A stretch of DNA of 56,681 bases from positions 1 through 56,681 of the forward strand of contig CAYGLI010000004.1 of the NCBI GenBank assembly GCA_964350795.1. Direction: 5' to 3'. The notes beneath the pieces were generated by a model that did not search any database, was not told the DNA's origin, and saw only the letters and a list, made by a program, of their open reading frames with translations. Below, piece after piece: positions 1,795 through 46,329 of the stretch (positions are counted from its first letter, which is position 1; the number at the start of each line of letters is the position of its first letter). The position numbers were made by a program, and so were the translations under genes. Source of the stretch: an uncultured Micavibrio sp. Lineage in GTDB: Bacteria > Pseudomonadota > Alphaproteobacteria > Micavibrionales > UBA1664.

Positions 1795-1940
1795 GATTTA
1801 CCGCCGCGCCCTGATGGGGATGAGCCTTGCCTGAACGGGCTTATACGGGGTTAACCACATGATGACACTATAAAAATATGGTTTATAATTCATAATATAT
1901 TATAGCATAATTGGATAAAAATAGCTAGTTACAGCATTCT

Positions 1941-2046
1941 TGTCATTCCCTGAATTTGCAAAGCAAATTATAAGGGAAACTGTGCCTCTGCCGTCCAACC
2001 AACAGAATGGATTACCCGAACAAGTCGGGTAATGACAAAATTCAGG
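1941..2046. repeat. Palindromic MITE-like element, long variant with TGTCATT/AATGACA termini
   Basis: Termini tgtcattccc...gggtaatgaca match the ends of the 74-bp family. Internal hairpins are ttccctgaatttgc/gcaaatt..agggaa and attacccga/tcgggtaat. The outer pair is cctgaattt (1949-1957) with aaattcagg (2038-2046). Confidence 0.5.
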
Positions 2047-12289: not shown

Positions 12290-12350
12290 TCTATCTCCAT
12301 CATTTCGAGGACCGTGAGTAACGTGGCGATCCATATAATTTAGGATTGAA

Positions 12351-12380
12351 ACGCAAAGTCACGCGAAGTCTCGCAAAGTT
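12351..12380. repeat. Three tandem 10-bp CGCAAAG-type units
   Basis: acgcaaagtc / acgcgaagtc / tcgcaaagtt with exact 10-bp phasing. The unit is the same as in the arms of the 40511-40601 palindrome. Confidence 0.6.
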
Positions 12381-12394
12381 TTTTATTGCTCTAT

Positions 12395-12464
12395 TGTCAT
12401 CCTGAGTGAAACGAAGGATCTCTGCTTAACCGCGAGCGGATTCTTCTCTACGTTCAGAATGACA
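12395..12464. repeat. Palindromic MITE-like element (GTCATYCTGAG...CTCAGAATGAC family), copy 1
   Basis: tgtcatcctgagtgaaacgaaggatc...gattcttctctacgttcagaatgaca. It is self-complementary and lies in the uvrA/acyltransferase divergent intergenic region. Confidence 0.8.
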
Positions 12465-29111: not shown

Positions 29112-29917
29112 TTTTTTAATGGCGTAATTTGAACCGGTTGAACTGATTTTGCTTTTTCGGTTGGCTCTGCTTGATAAGGCTCATTGGTATCTATATTTTC
29201 AAATGTTTCCTGAACTGATGTTCTCATCTCACGAACACCATCACCAACACCCTCGGCAAAATCACCCATTTTTGTTTGCGTTTTAGGAACAAAAGTTTTG
29301 ACGTCGATTGTATGAACAGGAATATTTCGTTTTGAAATTAAATTCATTTGATCTGAAAGCGTTAATATCATTGATTCATCAATATCACGCACCATTTCCT
29401 CTAATGTTCTTTGCAATCTTGCTTCGCGATAGGCCATTGTAACATTTAATGGCATCCGTATTTTACGCACAAATCTTGTTGTTGTTTGGCGATCTGGCAT
29501 ACCCGATAGATAGAGACTTTCAATATCAACGATTATTTCAATCGTATAATCCTCGTTATTCGCCAATGGAATATATGACAGCAATTTATTTTCATTTGGT
29601 GCGTCGGCCTTGGTAATTTGAGCCTTAGTCAACACCACATCTAATAAGCCGTCTGCCGCGGCTGGTTTAAAACGTTGCTCCAAATAACGACGCATGGCAA
29701 CGTCAGGTGGTGTTGGAAGCGTGCTTGCAATATCCCACGCCTGTGCTCCGCGTTGTGTTTTTGATGAAAACTCAATTCTTTTAACGTTAACTGGAATCTT
29801 TGTCAGATGTTCATAGGTTAATTGAGGCAATGGCGTTGCCTGTTGCACAGGTGATGCTGTACAGGCAGATAGAGTTAAAAGTGAAAGAGATGTTAGAGTG
29901 AGATATTTAAATTTCAT
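29108..29917 (-). CDS. Hypothetical lipoprotein
   Basis: 269 aa with lipobox LLTLSAC. It overlaps hslO by 4 nt (same operon) and overlaps the trkH stop convergently. Confidence 0.5.
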   Translation of the reverse strand: MKFKYLTLTSLSLLTLSACTASPVQQATPLPQLTYEHLTKIPVNVKRIEFSSKTQRGAQAWDIASTLPTPPDVAMRRYLEQRFKPAAADGLLDVVLTKAQITKADAPNENKLLSYIPLANNEDYTIEIIVDIESLYLSGMPDRQTTTRFVRKIRMPLNVTMAYREARLQRTLEEMVRDIDESMILTLSDQMNLISKRNIPVHTIDVKTFVPKTQTKMGDFAEGVGDGVREMRTSVQETFENIDTNEPYQAEPTEKAKSVQPVQITPLKN

Positions 29918-30861
29918 ACATCAATTGTATATGTTTTGGAGCAAAATTCACAAGTCATTTCAATCACACCATCTTTTGCCGCATGATTTTTATCATCATC
30001 GCTCAAATTATTAATAACATTTTTAACTTTATCCAACGAACAACGACATTCATGACGAATTGATTTGGCGTCATATACAATCACACCCTCTTCGTGAAAT
30101 AACCGGCGAAGCAATTCATTGATATGCATATCAGCATCAAGAATTTCCGCGTCAGTACATGTTTGTAATAACGTTCGTGACCTGTGCCAATCTTCCTTGC
30201 GTTCCTTATCTGATTTATCGCCAAATTTAACAACATCACTATTTGCCGCATGATCATCTGGTAAGAATTGCAACATTAATGCGCCAGATCGCCAATCATC
30301 ACCTTGTTTTGCCGATGCAACATAGAGAGATGTGCGTAATTGTTCTGATTGTTCAAAATAATGCGCGATAGATTCTTGTAATTTATCACCCTCTAGCGCA
30401 ACAATCCCTTGGTAGCGTTCGGTATTTGCGCCTTGATCTACGGTAAAGGCGATATGCCCACCACCCGTTAAATCCATCAATGAGTATCCATCATAAATAC
30501 CATCTGATTTTTTTAGCGCATTCAGGGCATCCATATCATATGTTGCACACCCACGCACCGCGCCATCATTTTGGATATCGGCCACCAATGTTTTTACCGC
30601 GCCCTTGCCCGATGCCTGTAGCGTGAATATTCCATCATATTTCAGCATTGATGATAATGCGCATGCCAATGTCACCGTGTCCGCCACCAAGTGCGCCACG
30701 GCGGGCGGATAATCATGTGCGGATAATATATCGTTTAATGTCGAACCAAGGCGAACCGCGCGACCACGCAATCCCGATTCCTGCAATTGAAATGGAAGGA
30801 TGATGTTATCAACCACATCACCATCTTCCTCAACAGGGTTATCATTTGCAATTTTGACCAT
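29914..30861 (-). CDS. hslO: Hsp33 redox-regulated chaperone
   Basis: 315 aa with the C-terminal zinc centre CRCS...CEFCSKTY. Confidence 0.9.
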   Translation of the reverse strand: MVKIANDNPVEEDGDVVDNIILPFQLQESGLRGRAVRLGSTLNDILSAHDYPPAVAHLVADTVTLACALSSMLKYDGIFTLQASGKGAVKTLVADIQNDGAVRGCATYDMDALNALKKSDGIYDGYSLMDLTGGGHIAFTVDQGANTERYQGIVALEGDKLQESIAHYFEQSEQLRTSLYVASAKQGDDWRSGALMLQFLPDDHAANSDVVKFGDKSDKERKEDWHRSRTLLQTCTDAEILDADMHINELLRRLFHEEGVIVYDAKSIRHECRCSLDKVKNVINNLSDDDKNHAAKDGVIEMTCEFCSKTYTIDV

Positions 30862-30916
30862 TGGATAAGGATTTACACGGATTAGATTGATTTTTCAATG
30901 GGTATTTTCGCTATAA

Positions 30917-31021
30917 TCCCTTCTCCCTGAGAAGAGGGTTGGGGTGGAGAGGATTGCGATTTGTGACGCCCCTCATCCGTCGAAGCTATCGCTTCGCCAC
31001 CTTCTCCCAAGGGAGAAGGGT
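30917..31021. repeat. Composite hairpin element of the 'PLP.GEG' G/C-tract family
   Basis: Three hairpins are present: cccttctc-cctga-gaagaggg, cgaagc-tatc-gcttcg and ccttctccc-aa-gggagaagg. The element fills the hslO/pdhB intergenic region. The spurious track ORF 30944-31135 runs through it. Confidence 0.6.
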
Positions 31022-31025
31022 TTTA

Positions 31026-32474
31026 TCAAGCCTTATAACAAGCGCGTTTGGCCGCGGCGACGATGTCCGCGACCTGTGGCAAGGCCAATTGTTCCAAATT
31101 CGCGGCGTATGGTAACGGCACATCCTTTGCCGTGACACGCTCTAACGGTGCATCCAAATAATCAAACGCATGCTCACCAACAAGGGCGGCAATTTCCGCG
31201 CCAACACCATGTTGCGGGAAACCTTCTTCGCATGTCACGATACGGTTTGTTTTTTTCACGCTCTCAATGATTGTATAACGATCCATCGGACGGATTGTTC
31301 GCAGGTTTACCACCTCGGCATTAATCCCCTCTTCAGCCAATATTTTTGCGGCCTCCATGGCCTTTCCGACCATGATGGATGCACCAACCAATGTGACATC
31401 CGTTCCCTCGCGTTCAATTTTTGCGCGACCAATTGGAACGACATATTCGGGGTCAGTAGGGCATTCAAATTCCTTACCGTACATGATTTCATTTTCCAAA
31501 ACCAAAACGGGGTTCGGGTCACGTATCGCGGCCTTCATCAAACCATAAGCATCGGCCGCAGACCAAGGCGAAACAACCTTTAACCCAGGGATATGCCCGT
31601 ACCACGCGGCGTAACATTGCGAGTGTTGTGCCCCAACACGTGCCGCTGCACCATTTGGCCCACGAAACACAATTTGACAACCCAATTGACCGCCCGCCAT
31701 ATAAAGGGTTTTGGCGGCAGAATTTATTAAATGGTCAATCGCCTGCATGGCGAAATTCATGGTCATAAATTCAACAATTGGTTTACACCCCTTAAACGCC
31801 GACCCAACAGCCAAACCAGCAAAACCATGTTCTGTAATGGGCGTATCAATCACGCGATCCGCGCCAAATTCATCTAACATGCCCTGCGTGATTTTATAGG
31901 CACCGTTATATTCCGCAACTTCCTCGCCCATCACATAGATGGCGGCGTCATTACGCATTTCTTCGCTCATAGCTTGGCGGAGTGCTTCACGAACGGTTTT
32001 TGTTTCTGTTTTTTTCCAAAAGGACGCCTCATCAAATTTTGGTGGCGCAATGACCTTTCCCTGCGCGTATAAAATATCGCGGTTATCGATGTCTTCGCCT
32101 TGTGGTTGAGACACTGTTTTGTCATTCTGAGGAGCTTGCGACGAAGAATCTCCCTTTGGCGAACTGGATTCTTCGCTATCGCTCAGAATGACAGGCTTAC
32201 TTGAAACCTTACCAATATCATCAACACTCTCACCCTCTTCCAATAACACCGCAATCGGCGTATTCACGGCAACATTATCAGTCCCCGCAGACACCAAAAT
32301 CTTGCCAATCGTGCCTTCTTCAACGGCTTCGACTTCCATTGTGGCCTTGTCGGTTTCGATTTCTGCAATCACGTCTCCTGCCTCAACTGTATCCCCCTCG
32401 GATTTCGTCCATTTAGCAAGTTTGCCCTCTGTCATAGTTGGCGATAACGCCGGCATTAAAATTTCTATTGGCAT
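31026..32474 (-). CDS. pdhB: Pyruvate dehydrogenase E1 beta subunit with N-terminal lipoyl domain
   Basis: 482 aa. The lipoyl domain reads [22 protein letters not shown]...ETDKATME and is followed by a linker and the transketolase-like E1-beta core. The linker contains an in-frame palindromic repeat copy. Confidence 0.93.
32120..32193. repeat. Palindromic MITE-like element, copy 2, inside the pdhB reading frame
   Basis: tgtcattctgaggagcttgcgacgaagaatc...gattcttcgctatcgctcagaatgaca. On the coding strand it translates as ...[25 protein letters not shown]... with no stop codon. Confidence 0.8.
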
Positions 32475-32488
32475 TTATTTTTCCTTAG

Positions 32489-32815
32489 TTAACCCAGAGT
32501 TTCAGAAAGAGTATGGCTGAGATCAAACTCAAACAACTCCATTTTACCTTCATATTTATATGATGCATTCGGTTCAATTATTATAAAATCTTTTTCACTC
32601 ACTTTATTTTGATTACCATTTATTGTGAATAAACCTTCACCATTAAGAACCAAGTAAAATCTGTATAATTGCCCTAAGTCACTAACCTCAGGATGATTTC
32701 CATCAACATTAACGATAGATGCATCCTGAAGATTTGAGATAGTTATAGGATTATACGACTGTCCTAATATATCGCTAAATTTAAAAGATTTTGTGTCTTT
32801 AAATTTAATAACCAT
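32489..32815 (-). CDS. Small cupin-like hypothetical protein between pdhA and pdhB
   Basis: About 108 aa from MVIKFKD. The sequence is beta-rich with a ...LNGEGLFTING...DFIIIEPNASYKYEG pattern suggestive of a cupin fold. It lies 8 nt after the pdhA stop and 14 nt before the pdhB start. It is A+T-rich. The track ORF (to 32851) overlaps pdhA. Confidence 0.45.
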   Translation of the reverse strand: MVIKFKDTKSFKFSDILGQSYNPITISNLQDASIVNVDGNHPEVSDLGQLYRFYLVLNGEGLFTINGNQNKVSEKDFIIIEPNASYKYEGKMELFEFDLSHTLSETLG

Positions 32816-32823
32816 AAGACTAA

Positions 32824-33822
32824 CTAAACCTCCACCAAAACATCCGTCCACAACTCTTCCGCGGCTGGTTCTGGTGATGTTTTTGCGAATTCTTCTGTTT
32901 CTTTGATGATGGCTTTAATCTCTTTATCAATCACTTTCAAATCATCCTCGGAGACACCCTCGTCGAATAAACGCGCCTTTAACCTGTTAATCGGGTCTTT
33001 GGATGTTTTGTAATCTTCGACTTCTTCTTTATTACGGTAATTACCAGGGTCAGACATTGAATGTCCGCGGTAACGATATGTCATGACCTCTAAAATATAA
33101 GGGCCATTGCCTGAACGCACATAATCCAATGCCTTGGCCGCGGCATCACGGACGGCGAAAATATCTTGTCCATCGACCTGTTCACCCGGAATGTCAAACC
33201 CTTCACCACGGCGGTATAATTCACCCGCCGCGTGACGCGCGGTGGATGTTCCCATACCATATTTATTGTTTTCAATCACGTATAACACGGGCAAGTTCCA
33301 GAGTTTCGCCATGTTGAAACATTCATAAACCTGCCCTTGGTTCGCCGCGCCGTCGCCTGAATAGGCAACGCAAACGCCATTATCCTTGTTATACTTATGC
33401 GCAAACGCCAACCCCGTACCCAGTGATGTTGACGCACCAACGATACCATGCCCGCCAAAGAAATTTTTCTCCTGAGAGAACATGTGCATCGAACCGCCCT
33501 TACCACGAGAAAAACCACCCTCACGACCCGTTAGTTCCGCCATAATCCCCTTGGGGTCCATATCACATGCCAACATGTGTGCATGATCGCGATAGGTTGT
33601 GATAACCGTATCTTGTGGTTCTTGCATGGATTGAATGCCTGTTACCACGGCCTCTTGACCAATATAAAGGTGACAAAACCCACCGATGAGACCCATACCA
33701 TAAAGTTGCCCCGCCTTTTCCTCAAACCGACGAATAAGCACCATGTCATGGTACATTTTCTTCATCTCATCGATGGTTGGGTTATCGGCTGAATTCTTCT
33801 TTGATTTCTTTTTGGTCGCCAT
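32824..33822 (-). CDS. pdhA: Pyruvate dehydrogenase E1 alpha subunit
   Basis: 332 aa. The TPP-binding region is GDGAANQG...NNKYGMGTS and the phosphorylation-loop-like motif is YRYRGHSMSDP. Confidence 0.95.
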   Translation of the reverse strand: MATKKKSKKNSADNPTIDEMKKMYHDMVLIRRFEEKAGQLYGMGLIGGFCHLYIGQEAVVTGIQSMQEPQDTVITTYRDHAHMLACDMDPKGIMAELTGREGGFSRGKGGSMHMFSQEKNFFGGHGIVGASTSLGTGLAFAHKYNKDNGVCVAYSGDGAANQGQVYECFNMAKLWNLPVLYVIENNKYGMGTSTARHAAGELYRRGEGFDIPGEQVDGQDIFAVRDAAAKALDYVRSGNGPYILEVMTYRYRGHSMSDPGNYRNKEEVEDYKTSKDPINRLKARLFDEGVSEDDLKVIDKEIKAIIKETEEFAKTSPEPAAEELWTDVLVEV

Positions 33823-40459: not shown

Positions 40460-40668
40460 TTATAGTGATTTCAAATAAGAATAATTTTATTTGAAACAAC
40501 TATCTCTGGGTTCACGCAAAGAGCGCAAAGGACACGCAAGGGTCGCAAAGAGCTCCGATTCCCTTGCGCCCTTTGCGACTTCTTAGCGACCTTCGCGTGA
40601 ACGATTACAATGCCTACGGCGTTACAGTTTTATCAGGTAAGACAGTATTCTATATAGAAATCACTATA
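40460..40668. repeat. Composite palindromic element: 12-bp terminal inverted repeats enclosing a 91-bp CGCAAAG-unit palindrome
   Basis: tatagtgatttc (40460-40471) and gaaatcactata (40657-40668) are perfect reverse complements. Inside, 40511-40601 has four 10-bp units (cacgcaaaga gcgcaaagga cacgcaaggg tcgcaaagag), a 9-nt spacer, and the inverted copy. Confidence 0.65.
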
Positions 40669-44652: not shown

Positions 44653-44726
44653 TGTCATCCTGAGGAGTTTACGACGAATGATCTCTTTCTCCGTGCCAGA
44701 GATTCTTCGCTATGCTCAGAATGACA
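44653..44726. repeat. Palindromic MITE-like element, copy 3
   Basis: tgtcatcctgaggagtttacgacgaatgatc...gattcttcgctatgctcagaatgaca, located between the pgk stop and the nfu start. The track ORF 44500-44724 runs through it. Confidence 0.8.
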
Positions 44727-44731
44727 ATAAG

Positions 44732-45910
44732 CTAGCCCTCTTCGTCTTCAAAATCAAGTGCGGCGATGGCGGGCAGCTCTTTCCCCTCTAACCATTCCAA
44801 AAATGCGCCACCCGCGGTGGAAACGTATGTCATGTCGTTCACAACACCTGCATGCGCCAGCGCGGCAACCGTGTCGCCACCACCCGCGATGACCTTTAGA
44901 TCACCTGATTGTACCTTTGCCGCAACATATTGAGCAACCTTGACTGTGCCCTGATCAAATGGTGCAATTTCAAACGCACCCAACGGGCCGTTCCAAACAA
45001 CCGTTTTGCATTGTTCCAAAAGAGATTTTAGCGATTCAACCGTATCATCACCAATATCCAACACCATGCGGTCATTTGGTACCGCCGTCATCGATACGAC
45101 ATCAAACGGGGCATCGGCCTTAAATTCCGTCGCGGCCTTACCGTCTTGGGGTAAGAATACCGAACATCCTGCCTCTTCCGCCTTATCCAAAATATCAAAT
45201 ACTTGGTCTTTCATATCTTTTTCGCACAGGCTGTTACCCATATCCATTCCAGCGGCATAAAGGAATGTGTTTGCCATACCTCCGCCCAAAATAAGGATAT
45301 CGACCTTGGAAACCAAATTATTCAACACATCCAATTTCGTGGAAATTTTTGCTCCACCAACGATTGCCGCTACAGGCCGATCAGGCTCACCCAGCGCGGA
45401 TTCCAATGCCTCTAATTCTTTCTGTAACGCTCGCCCTGCATATACGGGTAAGGCGTGTGCCAAGCCAACAATGGAACAATGATTACGGTGCGCAACGGAA
45501 AACGCGTCATTAACAAATATATCACCCAAACCGCCCGCCAATTTGGCCGTGTGTTCGGGGGTGCAATCTTGTTCTTCAGGATAAAAACGGACATTTTCCA
45601 TCAGGGTAATATCGCCCTCTGGCTCTTTCAAACAATCATCCGTGAAGGATACATCAATCCCCCATCGGTCTTTTAATACAGGGGGAAGAATGGATAGTGA
45701 ATATTTTTCATCATATCCCTTTGGGCGACCAAGATAAGAAAAAATCGCAATGCGCGCACCTTTGTTTTTGAGTTCCAAAACGGTGTCCTTCACGCGGTCA
45801 ATTCGCGTTGTGTCGGTCACATTGCCTTGGTCGTCAACCGGCACATTGAGATCAAGACGCAGGAGAACGAGTTTGTTATTTACATCAGGGAGTCTATCGA
45901 GTGTTTTCAT
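44732..45910 (-). CDS. pgk: Phosphoglycerate kinase
   Basis: 392 aa. LLRLDLNVP near the N-terminus, STKLDVL, and the C-terminal STAGGAFLEWLEGK. Confidence 0.96.
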   Translation of the reverse strand: MKTLDRLPDVNNKLVLLRLDLNVPVDDQGNVTDTTRIDRVKDTVLELKNKGARIAIFSYLGRPKGYDEKYSLSILPPVLKDRWGIDVSFTDDCLKEPEGDITLMENVRFYPEEQDCTPEHTAKLAGGLGDIFVNDAFSVAHRNHCSIVGLAHALPVYAGRALQKELEALESALGEPDRPVAAIVGGAKISTKLDVLNNLVSKVDILILGGGMANTFLYAAGMDMGNSLCEKDMKDQVFDILDKAEEAGCSVFLPQDGKAATEFKADAPFDVVSMTAVPNDRMVLDIGDDTVESLKSLLEQCKTVVWNGPLGAFEIAPFDQGTVKVAQYVAAKVQSGDLKVIAGGGDTVAALAHAGVVNDMTYVSTAGGAFLEWLEGKELPAIAALDFEDEEG

Positions 45911-46287
45911 TTGACTTCATCTTTCCCCTCGCCATAAGGGGGAGGGCTAGGGAGGGGGTTTACGGTGTTTATTATTTCTTCCAACACGCCCTCAATATTA
46001 TTCATTACATCATTATTCCAAAATCTTAGAACAATGAAACCTTTTTCATTTAAATCTTTTGTACGTTGTGCATCATATTCAATATTATCTGCATGTTGTC
46101 CGCCATCAATTTCAATAATCAACCGTTTTTCGAAACATAAAAAATCGACTATATATTTATCAATGGGGACTTGCCTTCTAAATTTCAAATTATTCAATTG
46201 TTTCCGTCGAACATGATACCAGAACTTTAATTCTGGCTCTGTTTGATTTTTCCTCAGGTTTTGAGATAGAGTTTTTAAATCTGGCAC
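45907..46287 (-). CDS. DUF559 (Vsr-like) endonuclease domain protein
   Basis: 126 aa. LRKNQTEPELKFW...FRRQ.PI..YIVDF.C....L.IE.DG..H......D..R...L...G..VLRF.N is the DUF559 pattern. The last ~13 codons (NPLPSPPPYGEGKDEVK) come from a repeat element. There is an ATGA overlap with pgk. Confidence 0.85.
   Translation of the reverse strand: MPDLKTLSQNLRKNQTEPELKFWYHVRRKQLNNLKFRRQVPIDKYIVDFLCFEKRLIIEIDGGQHADNIEYDAQRTKDLNEKGFIVLRFWNNDVMNNIEGVLEEIINTVNPLPSPPPYGEGKDEVK
45921..45960. repeat. G/C-tract hairpin element ('PLP.GEG' family), right-hand copy
   Basis: ctttcccctcgccataagggggagggctagggagggggtt. Its reverse complement aligns with 46291-46329. Confidence 0.65.
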
Positions 46288-46290
46288 CGT

Positions 46291-46329
46291 AAACCCTCCC
46301 CTTAATCCCCTCCCTCAGGTAGGGGAAAT
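46291..46329. repeat. G/C-tract hairpin element, inverted copy
   Basis: aaaccctccccttaatcccctccctcaggtaggggaaat. It lies 4 nt upstream of the DUF559 start and contains the stop and last ~9 codons (FPLPEGGD) of the SNase-like ORF. Confidence 0.65.

Follow-up and report, generated by a model that had tools for sequence, protein, structure and literature searches.

We analysed 56,681 nt from a contig of an uncultured Micavibrio sp. (GCA_964350795.1, CAYGLI010000004.1, positions 1 to 56,681; hereafter the window). A 74-bp palindromic element within pdhB (32120..32193, minus strand) has the build of a head-to-head dimer of short tagged hairpins, and is read in frame in the PdhB linker that joins the lipoyl domain to the E1β core. 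The best explanation, which we hold to be highly probable, is that a dimer of CGTC/TGTC-tagged REPs became fixed in the pdhB linker and would have been spread by a putative trans-acting factor together with recombination. The first-pass annotation of this DNA had described a palindromic repeat with dispersed copies, one of them translated in frame within the lipoyl-E1β linker, in the manner of the Rickettsia palindromic elements (RPEs), and this description is supported by the evidence given below.

The dimer in pdhB and the other copies in the window

The pdhB gene (31026..32474, minus strand) is intact and encodes 482 aa, in which the ORF and an alignment of homologues delimit a lipoyl domain, a linker and the E1β core. 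The dimer lies in the hypervariable lipoyl-E1β linker, placed by the alignment at residues 83-130 (32085..32228, minus strand), and its coding share comprises the third base of P94, codons V95-D118 and the first base of K119. A length of 74 is not divisible by 3, so the inserted unit must differ slightly from the 74 bp attributed to the element, and the boundaries of the insertion in pdhB are uncertain by 1-2 nt. In each arm one reading phase is closed by TGA, so that the open combinations read VI(L/P)S or CH(S/P)E in the left arm and LRMT or Q(N/D)D in the right arm. The pdhB copy reads V-I-L-S on the left and Q-N-D on the right, for which a length of 2 mod 3 is needed. Being in a stop-free phase combination, it would be translated as a hydrophilic stretch of 24 residues rich in Ser, Glu, Asp and Gln, and the intact frame suggests that this peptide is expressed. 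A search of the translated element against Pfam and NCBIfam gave no match.

The linker had been put forward as a site where such an insertion would be tolerated, and this claim holds. Indeed, it is the only hypervariable part of PdhB in the homologue alignment, and the window protein is no longer than its homologues, which measure 460-493 aa among the best 120 of 8000 with E ≤ 1e-30. The insertion is tolerated because the sequence and length of the linker are barely constrained. An AlphaFold model of PdhB, of low quality overall (pLDDT 58), gives its lowest values to the linker (25-30), which it draws without secondary structure, hinting at disorder in this region. The objection that pdhB might be a pseudogene is countered by the intact ORF, which keeps every invariant residue of 30 homologues. 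Furthermore, an assembly artefact is made unlikely by the independent assemblies L122 and L124, in which the same dimer is found at the same linker site.

Directly 3′ of the pdhB stop codon lies another nested palindrome (30915-31023; AATCCCTTCTCCCTGAGAAGAGGGT ... ACCTTCTCCCAAGGGAGAAGGGTTT), each arm of which is itself a local palindrome. Peptides of the form SPSPRGEG...QGEG resemble a translated copy of this flavour and are present in the PdhB linker of homologue P0006 and in the E2 linker of L122. The gene after pdhB is that of Hsp33 (29914-31026) and not pdhC, which relatives have in this place, so the pdh operon is split in the window genome.

Three self-complementary copies of 70-74 bp had been reported, two of them intergenic and one in frame in pdhB, and all three were found where they had been located. 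Intergenic copy 1 (12395..12464, no strand assigned) is 70 bp long, ends on the right in TTCAGAATGACA and separates the divergent uvrA and acyltransferase genes, whose starts are 60 nt and 90 nt away, respectively. Intergenic copy 3 (44653..44726, no strand assigned), of 74 bp and of the same subtype as the pdhB copy, begins 5 nt after the pgk stop codon and ends 22 nt before the nfu start. The pattern TGTCATYCTGAG-N40-60-CTCAGAATGACA fits both 74-bp copies, and copy 1 departs from it by one base at its right end; the full pattern had no match in 100 dinucleotide-preserving shuffles. The terminal inverted repeats of the element are a perfect 12 bp, and each of the three copies folds into a hairpin, with energies from -23 to -30 kcal/mol (z -2.7 to -4.7). 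A terminator role for copies 2 and 3 was considered and rejected, as they are not terminator-like.

The unit scan identified a further dimer of the same superfamily, of another flavour (1940..2038, no strand assigned), which contains a textbook unit near 2036: TGTC ATTACCCGA CTTGT TCGGGTAAT CCA. This CGTC-type dimer adjoins an HNH endonuclease gene (1192-1794). The window also contains a palindrome made of CGCAAAG-like heptamers (40510-40602), and similar heptamers lie beside copy 1 (12350-12380). At locus L130, a GIY-YIG gene is placed between inverted arrays of GGTTTCAAG-like heptamers.

Anatomy and covariation of the hairpin unit

On the coding strand, the 5′ unit of the pdhB copy (32165..32193, minus strand) is composed of a TGTC tag, a 9-nt stem with two G·A mismatches (ATTCTGAGC and GCGAAGAAT), a 4-nt loop (GATA) and a CCA tail. 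The second unit (32120..32152, plus strand), translated antisense in pdhB, is a 'long-arm' variant, TGTCATTCTGAG-GAGCTTGCGA-CGAAGAATCTC, with an interior of 10 nt; the same variant is present in L009, L021 and L094. Units are ~25-30 nt in size and, in all three window copies, are paired head-to-head with their tags outward and a short spacer of ~10-20 nt between them. The tag is TGTC at all six element ends in the window, and CGTC in the related PdhB linker copies of L123, L125 and L127. The stems (ATTCTGAGC/GCGAAGAAT and their equivalents) are 8-9 nt long and AT-initiated, with at most two mismatches; the two internal mismatches are G·A. The tail is CCA in the pdhB unit and in the unit near 2036, and CTC in the other units. 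Window units score best with loops of 4-5 nt (GATA and the like), and the canonical unit can be drawn with a GAA triloop too. In the latter form each arm is a small hairpin that reads ATYCT, tandem G·A, GC, GAA loop, GC, tandem G·A, AGRAT. The consensus among the loci listed is TGTCATYCTGAG-CGNAG-CGAAGRATCTC, a variable spacer and the reverse complement, for a total of 64-86 bp.

Covariation was strong inside the unit and absent between arms. The Y/R positions pair within the unit in 102/104 and 103/104 elements (Fisher 4e-26 and 7e-29), but across the two arms in only 58/104 and 59/104 (p 0.4 and 0.3). Likewise, covariation at the variable third position of the stem holds in 205 of the 208 unit cases. 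Almost half of the dimers (46/104) are heterodimeric at the Y/R position, with arms that vary independently. This demonstrates that the conserved structure is the unit hairpin and not the long 74-bp hairpin: with covariation confined to the unit, what had been taken for a 74-bp element is a head-to-head pair of independently varying units.

Spread across bacteria and exchange of pdhB linker alleles

A genome scan with the element ends, taking one genome per species, yielded at least 120 loci. Among the loci listed, the unit sequence is almost unchanged in what are roughly at least 17 bacterial phyla, CPR lineages included. Its hosts there comprise Acidobacteriota, Chloroflexota, Bacillota, Bacteroidota (with isolate genomes of Mucilaginibacter, Flavobacterium, Spirosoma and Hymenobacter), Nitrospirota, Planctomycetota, Verrucomicrobiota, Omnitrophota, Gemmatimonadota, Armatimonadota, Synergistota, Bdellovibrionota, Desulfobacterota and Patescibacteria, as well as alpha-, beta- and gamma-proteobacteria, including a Micavibrio MAG. 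With the unit so little changed in most bacterial phyla, the question of which factor recognises these hairpins and spreads them becomes more pressing.

Four of the 126 elements at the 120 loci listed are in-frame copies in real genes: in UvrA of a gammaproteobacterial MAG (L095, aa 180-207), in MurB of a Micavibrio MAG, between the two domains of the protein (L021), in PurL of an Omnitrophota genome (L057) and in LepA of a CPR Magasanikbacteria MAG (L077). For annotation, the translated units explain the recurrent peptides VILSEAKDL, CHPERSEGS, ...LRMT and ...AQ(N/D)D in both spurious and real proteins. Around the 126 elements, target-site duplications of 2-4 bp were at or below chance, those of 5 and 8 bp amounted to single isolated matches, and no flanking target motif was found. 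Clustering of the ORFs within 2.5 kb of the 120 loci listed gave no recurrent neighbour gene other than generic ABC ATPases, including uvrA. Rfam, searched in gathering and E-value modes, returned only generic miRNA-hairpin matches below threshold, and an exact-sequence literature search for the element retrieved nothing relevant. Half-elements occur alone, in tandem (L002) and in dense clusters (L035).

In the Nitrospirales locus L002 (4114-4238) the terminal arm alone forms a 7-fold tandem array with a period of ~21 nt, and in an Aminivibrio MAG (L035, 3237-4806) whole and half elements crowd around a HicB-like gene. Four of approximately 129 elements (loci listed plus window) lie in or just upstream of uvrA, a share far above chance for one gene: the window copy at 12395-12464, 60 nt before the ATG; one at the 5′ end of the gene in L015 (4392-4475); one 111 nt upstream in L041 (6891-6971); and the in-frame copy of L095 (5992-6073).

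We then consider the PdhB linkers of relatives, drawn from the best 120 of 8000 homologues mentioned above. The first-pass annotation had asked whether the block of about 25 residues is lineage-specific, and the answer is mixed. The block is absent from P0002, which at 91% identity is the closest among the matches listed; yet it recurs polyphyletically, being present in P0007 (87%) and in P0089 (73%, named a Rhodospirillales MAG), and it moves as a recombining cassette. Other linkers contain blocks that resemble translated palindromes, namely VIPTEGKAV...STSLGMT, PVIEAEAA...SGLRQND, VIPSEAEGSS...SAQDD and SLRAEGEAIS...APRND. At the DNA level, a GTCAT...ATGAC nested palindrome is present in the linkers of 6/7 relatives, or 7/8 linkers counting the window, in at least the flavours CTGAG, CCGAG, CTGGC and GCGAG. 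The sole examined linker without a palindrome is that of L121 (P0002), in which a search for a decayed element found no residual similarity or palindromy; a relative free of the repeat thus does not share the linker sequence. A peptide signature of the dimer was detected in 20 of the 103 linkers scored, compared with 0.035 in shuffled linkers, and matched once in 44,532 aa beyond the linker. No GTCAT-type element was found in the E2 linkers of six relatives, a small sample. About ten more distant PdhB linkers carry the motif (N/D/K)IPC(A/I/V)P(Q/N)S (P0035, P0037, P0057, P0063, P0078, P0081, P0084, P0102, P0117 and P0119), which may either come from yet another translated repeat or be a genuine motif of the linker.

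Comparison of filled linkers at different distances shows that the arms do not follow the rest of the gene. The pdhB cores of the window and L122 are 77.8% identical, and only 49.6% at third codon positions; their linker dimers have 63/64 identical arm positions and unrelated spacers. At 70% core identity, L124 still retains the unit, with a compensatory change from T-A to C-G inside the left unit. With third positions so divergent, the identity of the arms is not what an old insertion decaying neutrally would leave: either the arms are under constraint, or they have been converted or re-inserted repeatedly.

The linker types are distributed polyphyletically over a neighbour-joining tree built from the PdhB core, and P0001, P0004 and P0008, which bear different flavours, are each sister to an element-free protein (P0002, P0003 and P0011, respectively). 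The last of these pairs is the most informative. The contigs of L125 (P0008, filled) and L131 (P0011, empty) are 100% identical over >3 kb and their pdhB genes are ~97% identical outside the linker, whereas the whole linker core is a different, sharply bounded block that runs from just after GATATTGGT to just before CAACCAG and measures 108 nt versus 84 nt. The block swap shows an exchange of linker cassettes between related strains, and not a clean insertion at an empty site. The pattern of presence and absence therefore results, at least in part, from homologous recombination of linker cassettes. The residues that precede the dimer, xVSSxP, are shared by the filled alleles and indicate that the filled cassettes have a common origin. 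These filled and empty pdhB alleles constitute a natural experiment on gain, homogenisation and loss of transposase-less CGTC-type repeats.

A small ORF lies between pdhA and pdhB, with 62-120 aa in four measured relatives (L121 1906-2094, L123 9558-9839, L125 4172-4393 and L131 914-1174), whose products seem unrelated by eye; it is absent in L122. The one of the window (32489-32851) has a weak cupin match. This ORF is also swapped as a block in the L125/L131 pair.

Known repeat families, rival explanations and nuclease leads

The CGTC-tagged REP superfamily was defined by Di Nocera, De Gregorio and Rocco (2013, BMC Genomics 14:522, PMC3733652). Its members have an unpaired CGTC tag (TGTC or CCTC allowed), a stem of 8-9 bp with an A-T start, a loop of 4-5 nt and an unpaired 3-nt tail, mostly CCA; they are mainly head-to-head dimers, homo- or heterodimeric, with a variable spacer, and can fold as larger hairpins (PMC3733652). 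The repeats are reported there from 5 phyla and from Micavibrio aeruginosavorus (CGTC-1), with no associated transposase found. In-frame copies are described in dozens of housekeeping genes (uvrA/B/C, murB, polA, dnaE2), among them those of pyruvate dehydrogenase E1 (466 aa; residues 86-93) and E2 of Sphingopyxis alaskensis, and such insertions are said to be possibly neutral, in flexible linkers or loops (PMC3733652).

The window element shares with these repeats the (C/T)GTC tag, the AT-initiated stem of 8-9 nt, the short loop, the CCA-type tail, head-to-head dimers, the lack of a linked transposase, in-frame copies in housekeeping genes and the presence in Micavibrio. Moreover, the Sphingopyxis E1 copy corresponds in its position along the protein to the linker studied here, and the supplement translations of CGTC dimers (VIPAKAGI...SRLRGND and ...AGMT) obey the same logic (VIP...GND or ...GMT) as the pdhB copy (PMC3733652). 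The association with uvrA echoes the repair-gene enrichment given there for CGTC-tagged REPs. What differs is the flavour, ATYCT-GA-GC-GAA-GC-GA-AGRAT with tandem G·A mismatches in the stem, and the host range, roughly at least 17 phyla here against the 5 reported in PMC3733652. The VILS and QND peptides of our flavour were not found on searching its intragenic supplement table (file 4). The fit, good although not perfect, is to the described architecture at the level of the superfamily, above the assignment to CGTC-1 to -4; judged from sequence, the element is a member of the CGTC/TGTC-tagged REP superfamily and not a new lineage-specific MITE. Taken alone, the pdhB copy adds one example of a protein linker that accommodates a tagged REP dimer, a phenomenon that had been catalogued in 2013 (PMC3733652). 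New here are the pan-phylum conservation of the unit, the covariation at unit level, the recurrent presence of several flavours in one and the same linker, and the polymorphism within populations.

RPEs reportedly lie in frame within Rickettsia genes, according to work by Ogata and colleagues from 2000 and 2002. RPE-1, of ~100-150 bp, is longer than our element and is not a REP dimer. As with the RPEs, the pdhB palindrome is read through in frame in an essential gene that stays intact, and it differs from them in host clade and unit sequence; the likeness rests on the equation of RPE-6 and RPE-4 of R. conorii with CGTC-1 and CGTC-4 in PMC3733652. The first-pass annotation had presented the window element as a new extension of the RPE phenomenon. 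The analogy is correct, but because the CGTC class already includes RPE-4 and RPE-6 as well as copies in pyruvate dehydrogenase genes, the extension beyond Rickettsia had already been made.

Two further groups of repeats were compared with the element. Small non-autonomous repeats such as the cyanobacterial in-frame MITEs (Nezha etc.) and Correia/ERIC have IS-related terminal inverted repeats and target duplications. They resemble the element in being occasionally translated within genes, whereas the element has neither IS-related ends nor target duplications. GTAG REPs and REPINs are inverted pairs of short tagged hairpins that leave no target duplication and persist in genomes, and work on them and on RAYT is said to go back to Nunvar in 2010, Bertels and Rainey in 2011 and Ton-Hoang in 2012. 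To our knowledge, a trans-acting enzyme (RAYT) has been demonstrated for no other REP class, and for this reason we use them as a mechanistic model. The inverted pairing of short tagged hairpins without target duplication is common to both; in contrast, the tag here is (C/T)GTC and not GTAG, and no RAYT is flanked by units among the loci listed or in PMC3733652.

Our proposal is that a non-autonomous head-to-head REP pair would have become fixed in the coding sequence of the unstructured PdhB linker, its stop-free phase combination allowing it to be translated. By analogy with GTAG REPs and RAYT, the unit hairpin would most likely be recognised on single-stranded DNA by a trans-acting enzyme, and this putative enzyme may copy or maintain units without target duplications. 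The REP-bearing allele would have been spread or lost among related strains by homologous recombination via the conserved sequences of the flanking domains; the cassette recombination itself was observed for a sister flavour (L125/L131) and not for the window dimer. Speaking against this explanation, the two tandem G·A mismatches and the GAA triloop that canonical copies show when their GC pairs are counted make the fit to a stem of 8-9 bp and a loop of 4-5 nt inexact, the second pdhB unit is a long-arm variant, no mobilising enzyme was found here or in PMC3733652, and the arms of the window and L122 copies are more alike than neutral decay would leave them. A bolder version, which we regard as rather doubtful, supposes that a factor shared by bacteria propagates or maintains the ~25-nt unit (TGTC-ATYCT-GA-GC-GAA-GC-GA-AGRAT-C), and that intragenic copies are in exchange with the genomic pool. 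If true, it would explain the 98% identity of the arms despite saturated synonymous divergence, the switching of flavours at one site and the enrichment at uvrA.

The element had also been called MITE-like, that is, a single long hairpin whose arms would be the terminal inverted repeats of a DDE-type IS and which would have entered pdhB by cut-and-paste. The perfect 12-bp terminal repeats, the size of 70-86 bp and the dispersed copies are what such an element would show, but the 126 elements lack target-site duplications of 2-9 bp, the arms vary independently while units covary internally, no transposase recurs near the 120 loci listed, and half-elements stand alone and in tandem arrays; a classical MITE is therefore very improbable. 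Even harder to sustain is the idea of an ancestral linker sequence or convergence, an assembly artefact or a pseudogene copy, which we consider scarcely credible. The linker is of low complexity and the window is a single contig, yet shuffling never produced the pattern, the palindromic DNA is present in independent assemblies, the ORF is intact with its invariant residues, and the L121 linker has no residual similarity.

A host function that retains the palindrome is unlikely as well, though less so than the two previous explanations. The mRNA hairpin might slow ribosomes between domains or stabilise the transcript, or the acidic Ser-rich peptide might tune the linker. This would agree with the near-identity of the arms in the window and L122 despite near-saturated synonymous sites and an unrelated loop, with the folding of the coding-strand RNA of the pdhB copy (-29.5 kcal/mol, z -4.7) and with the frequency of the dimer among the 103 linkers. 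Nevertheless, the nearest relatives among the matches listed (P0002, P0003 and P0011) have no dimer, REP-bearing and REP-free alleles coexist in near-identical strains, the same units are found at unrelated intergenic sites and in unrelated proteins, and the conservation of the arms is family-wide across phyla and not specific to this site.

Cargo-bearing versions of the dimer were searched for. A strict search retrieved chance pairs only, and a lenient one retrieved a single case, in L122 (6512-6913), in which a GIY-YIG-like ORF of 96 aa is nested between the two CGTC-tagged units of a GCGAG-flavour dimer. This ORF has 877 homologues, named GIY-YIG nuclease family protein, with 64-78% identity among the best 120, from alpha-, beta- and gammaproteobacteria, a spread that suggests that this small nuclease gene is mobile. 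As a partner nuclease of the units it was rejected, since three other genomic contexts of the gene are not flanked by them. In the window, a DUF559 gene (Vsr-like endonuclease, Pfam E 3e-43; 45907-46315, 126 aa) has pgk on one side and an SNase-like gene on the other. With the inverted repeats of 31 nt that enclose it (AGGGGGAGGGCTAGGGAGGGGG...), which are of another kind than the REP units, it looks like a small selfish gene cassette.
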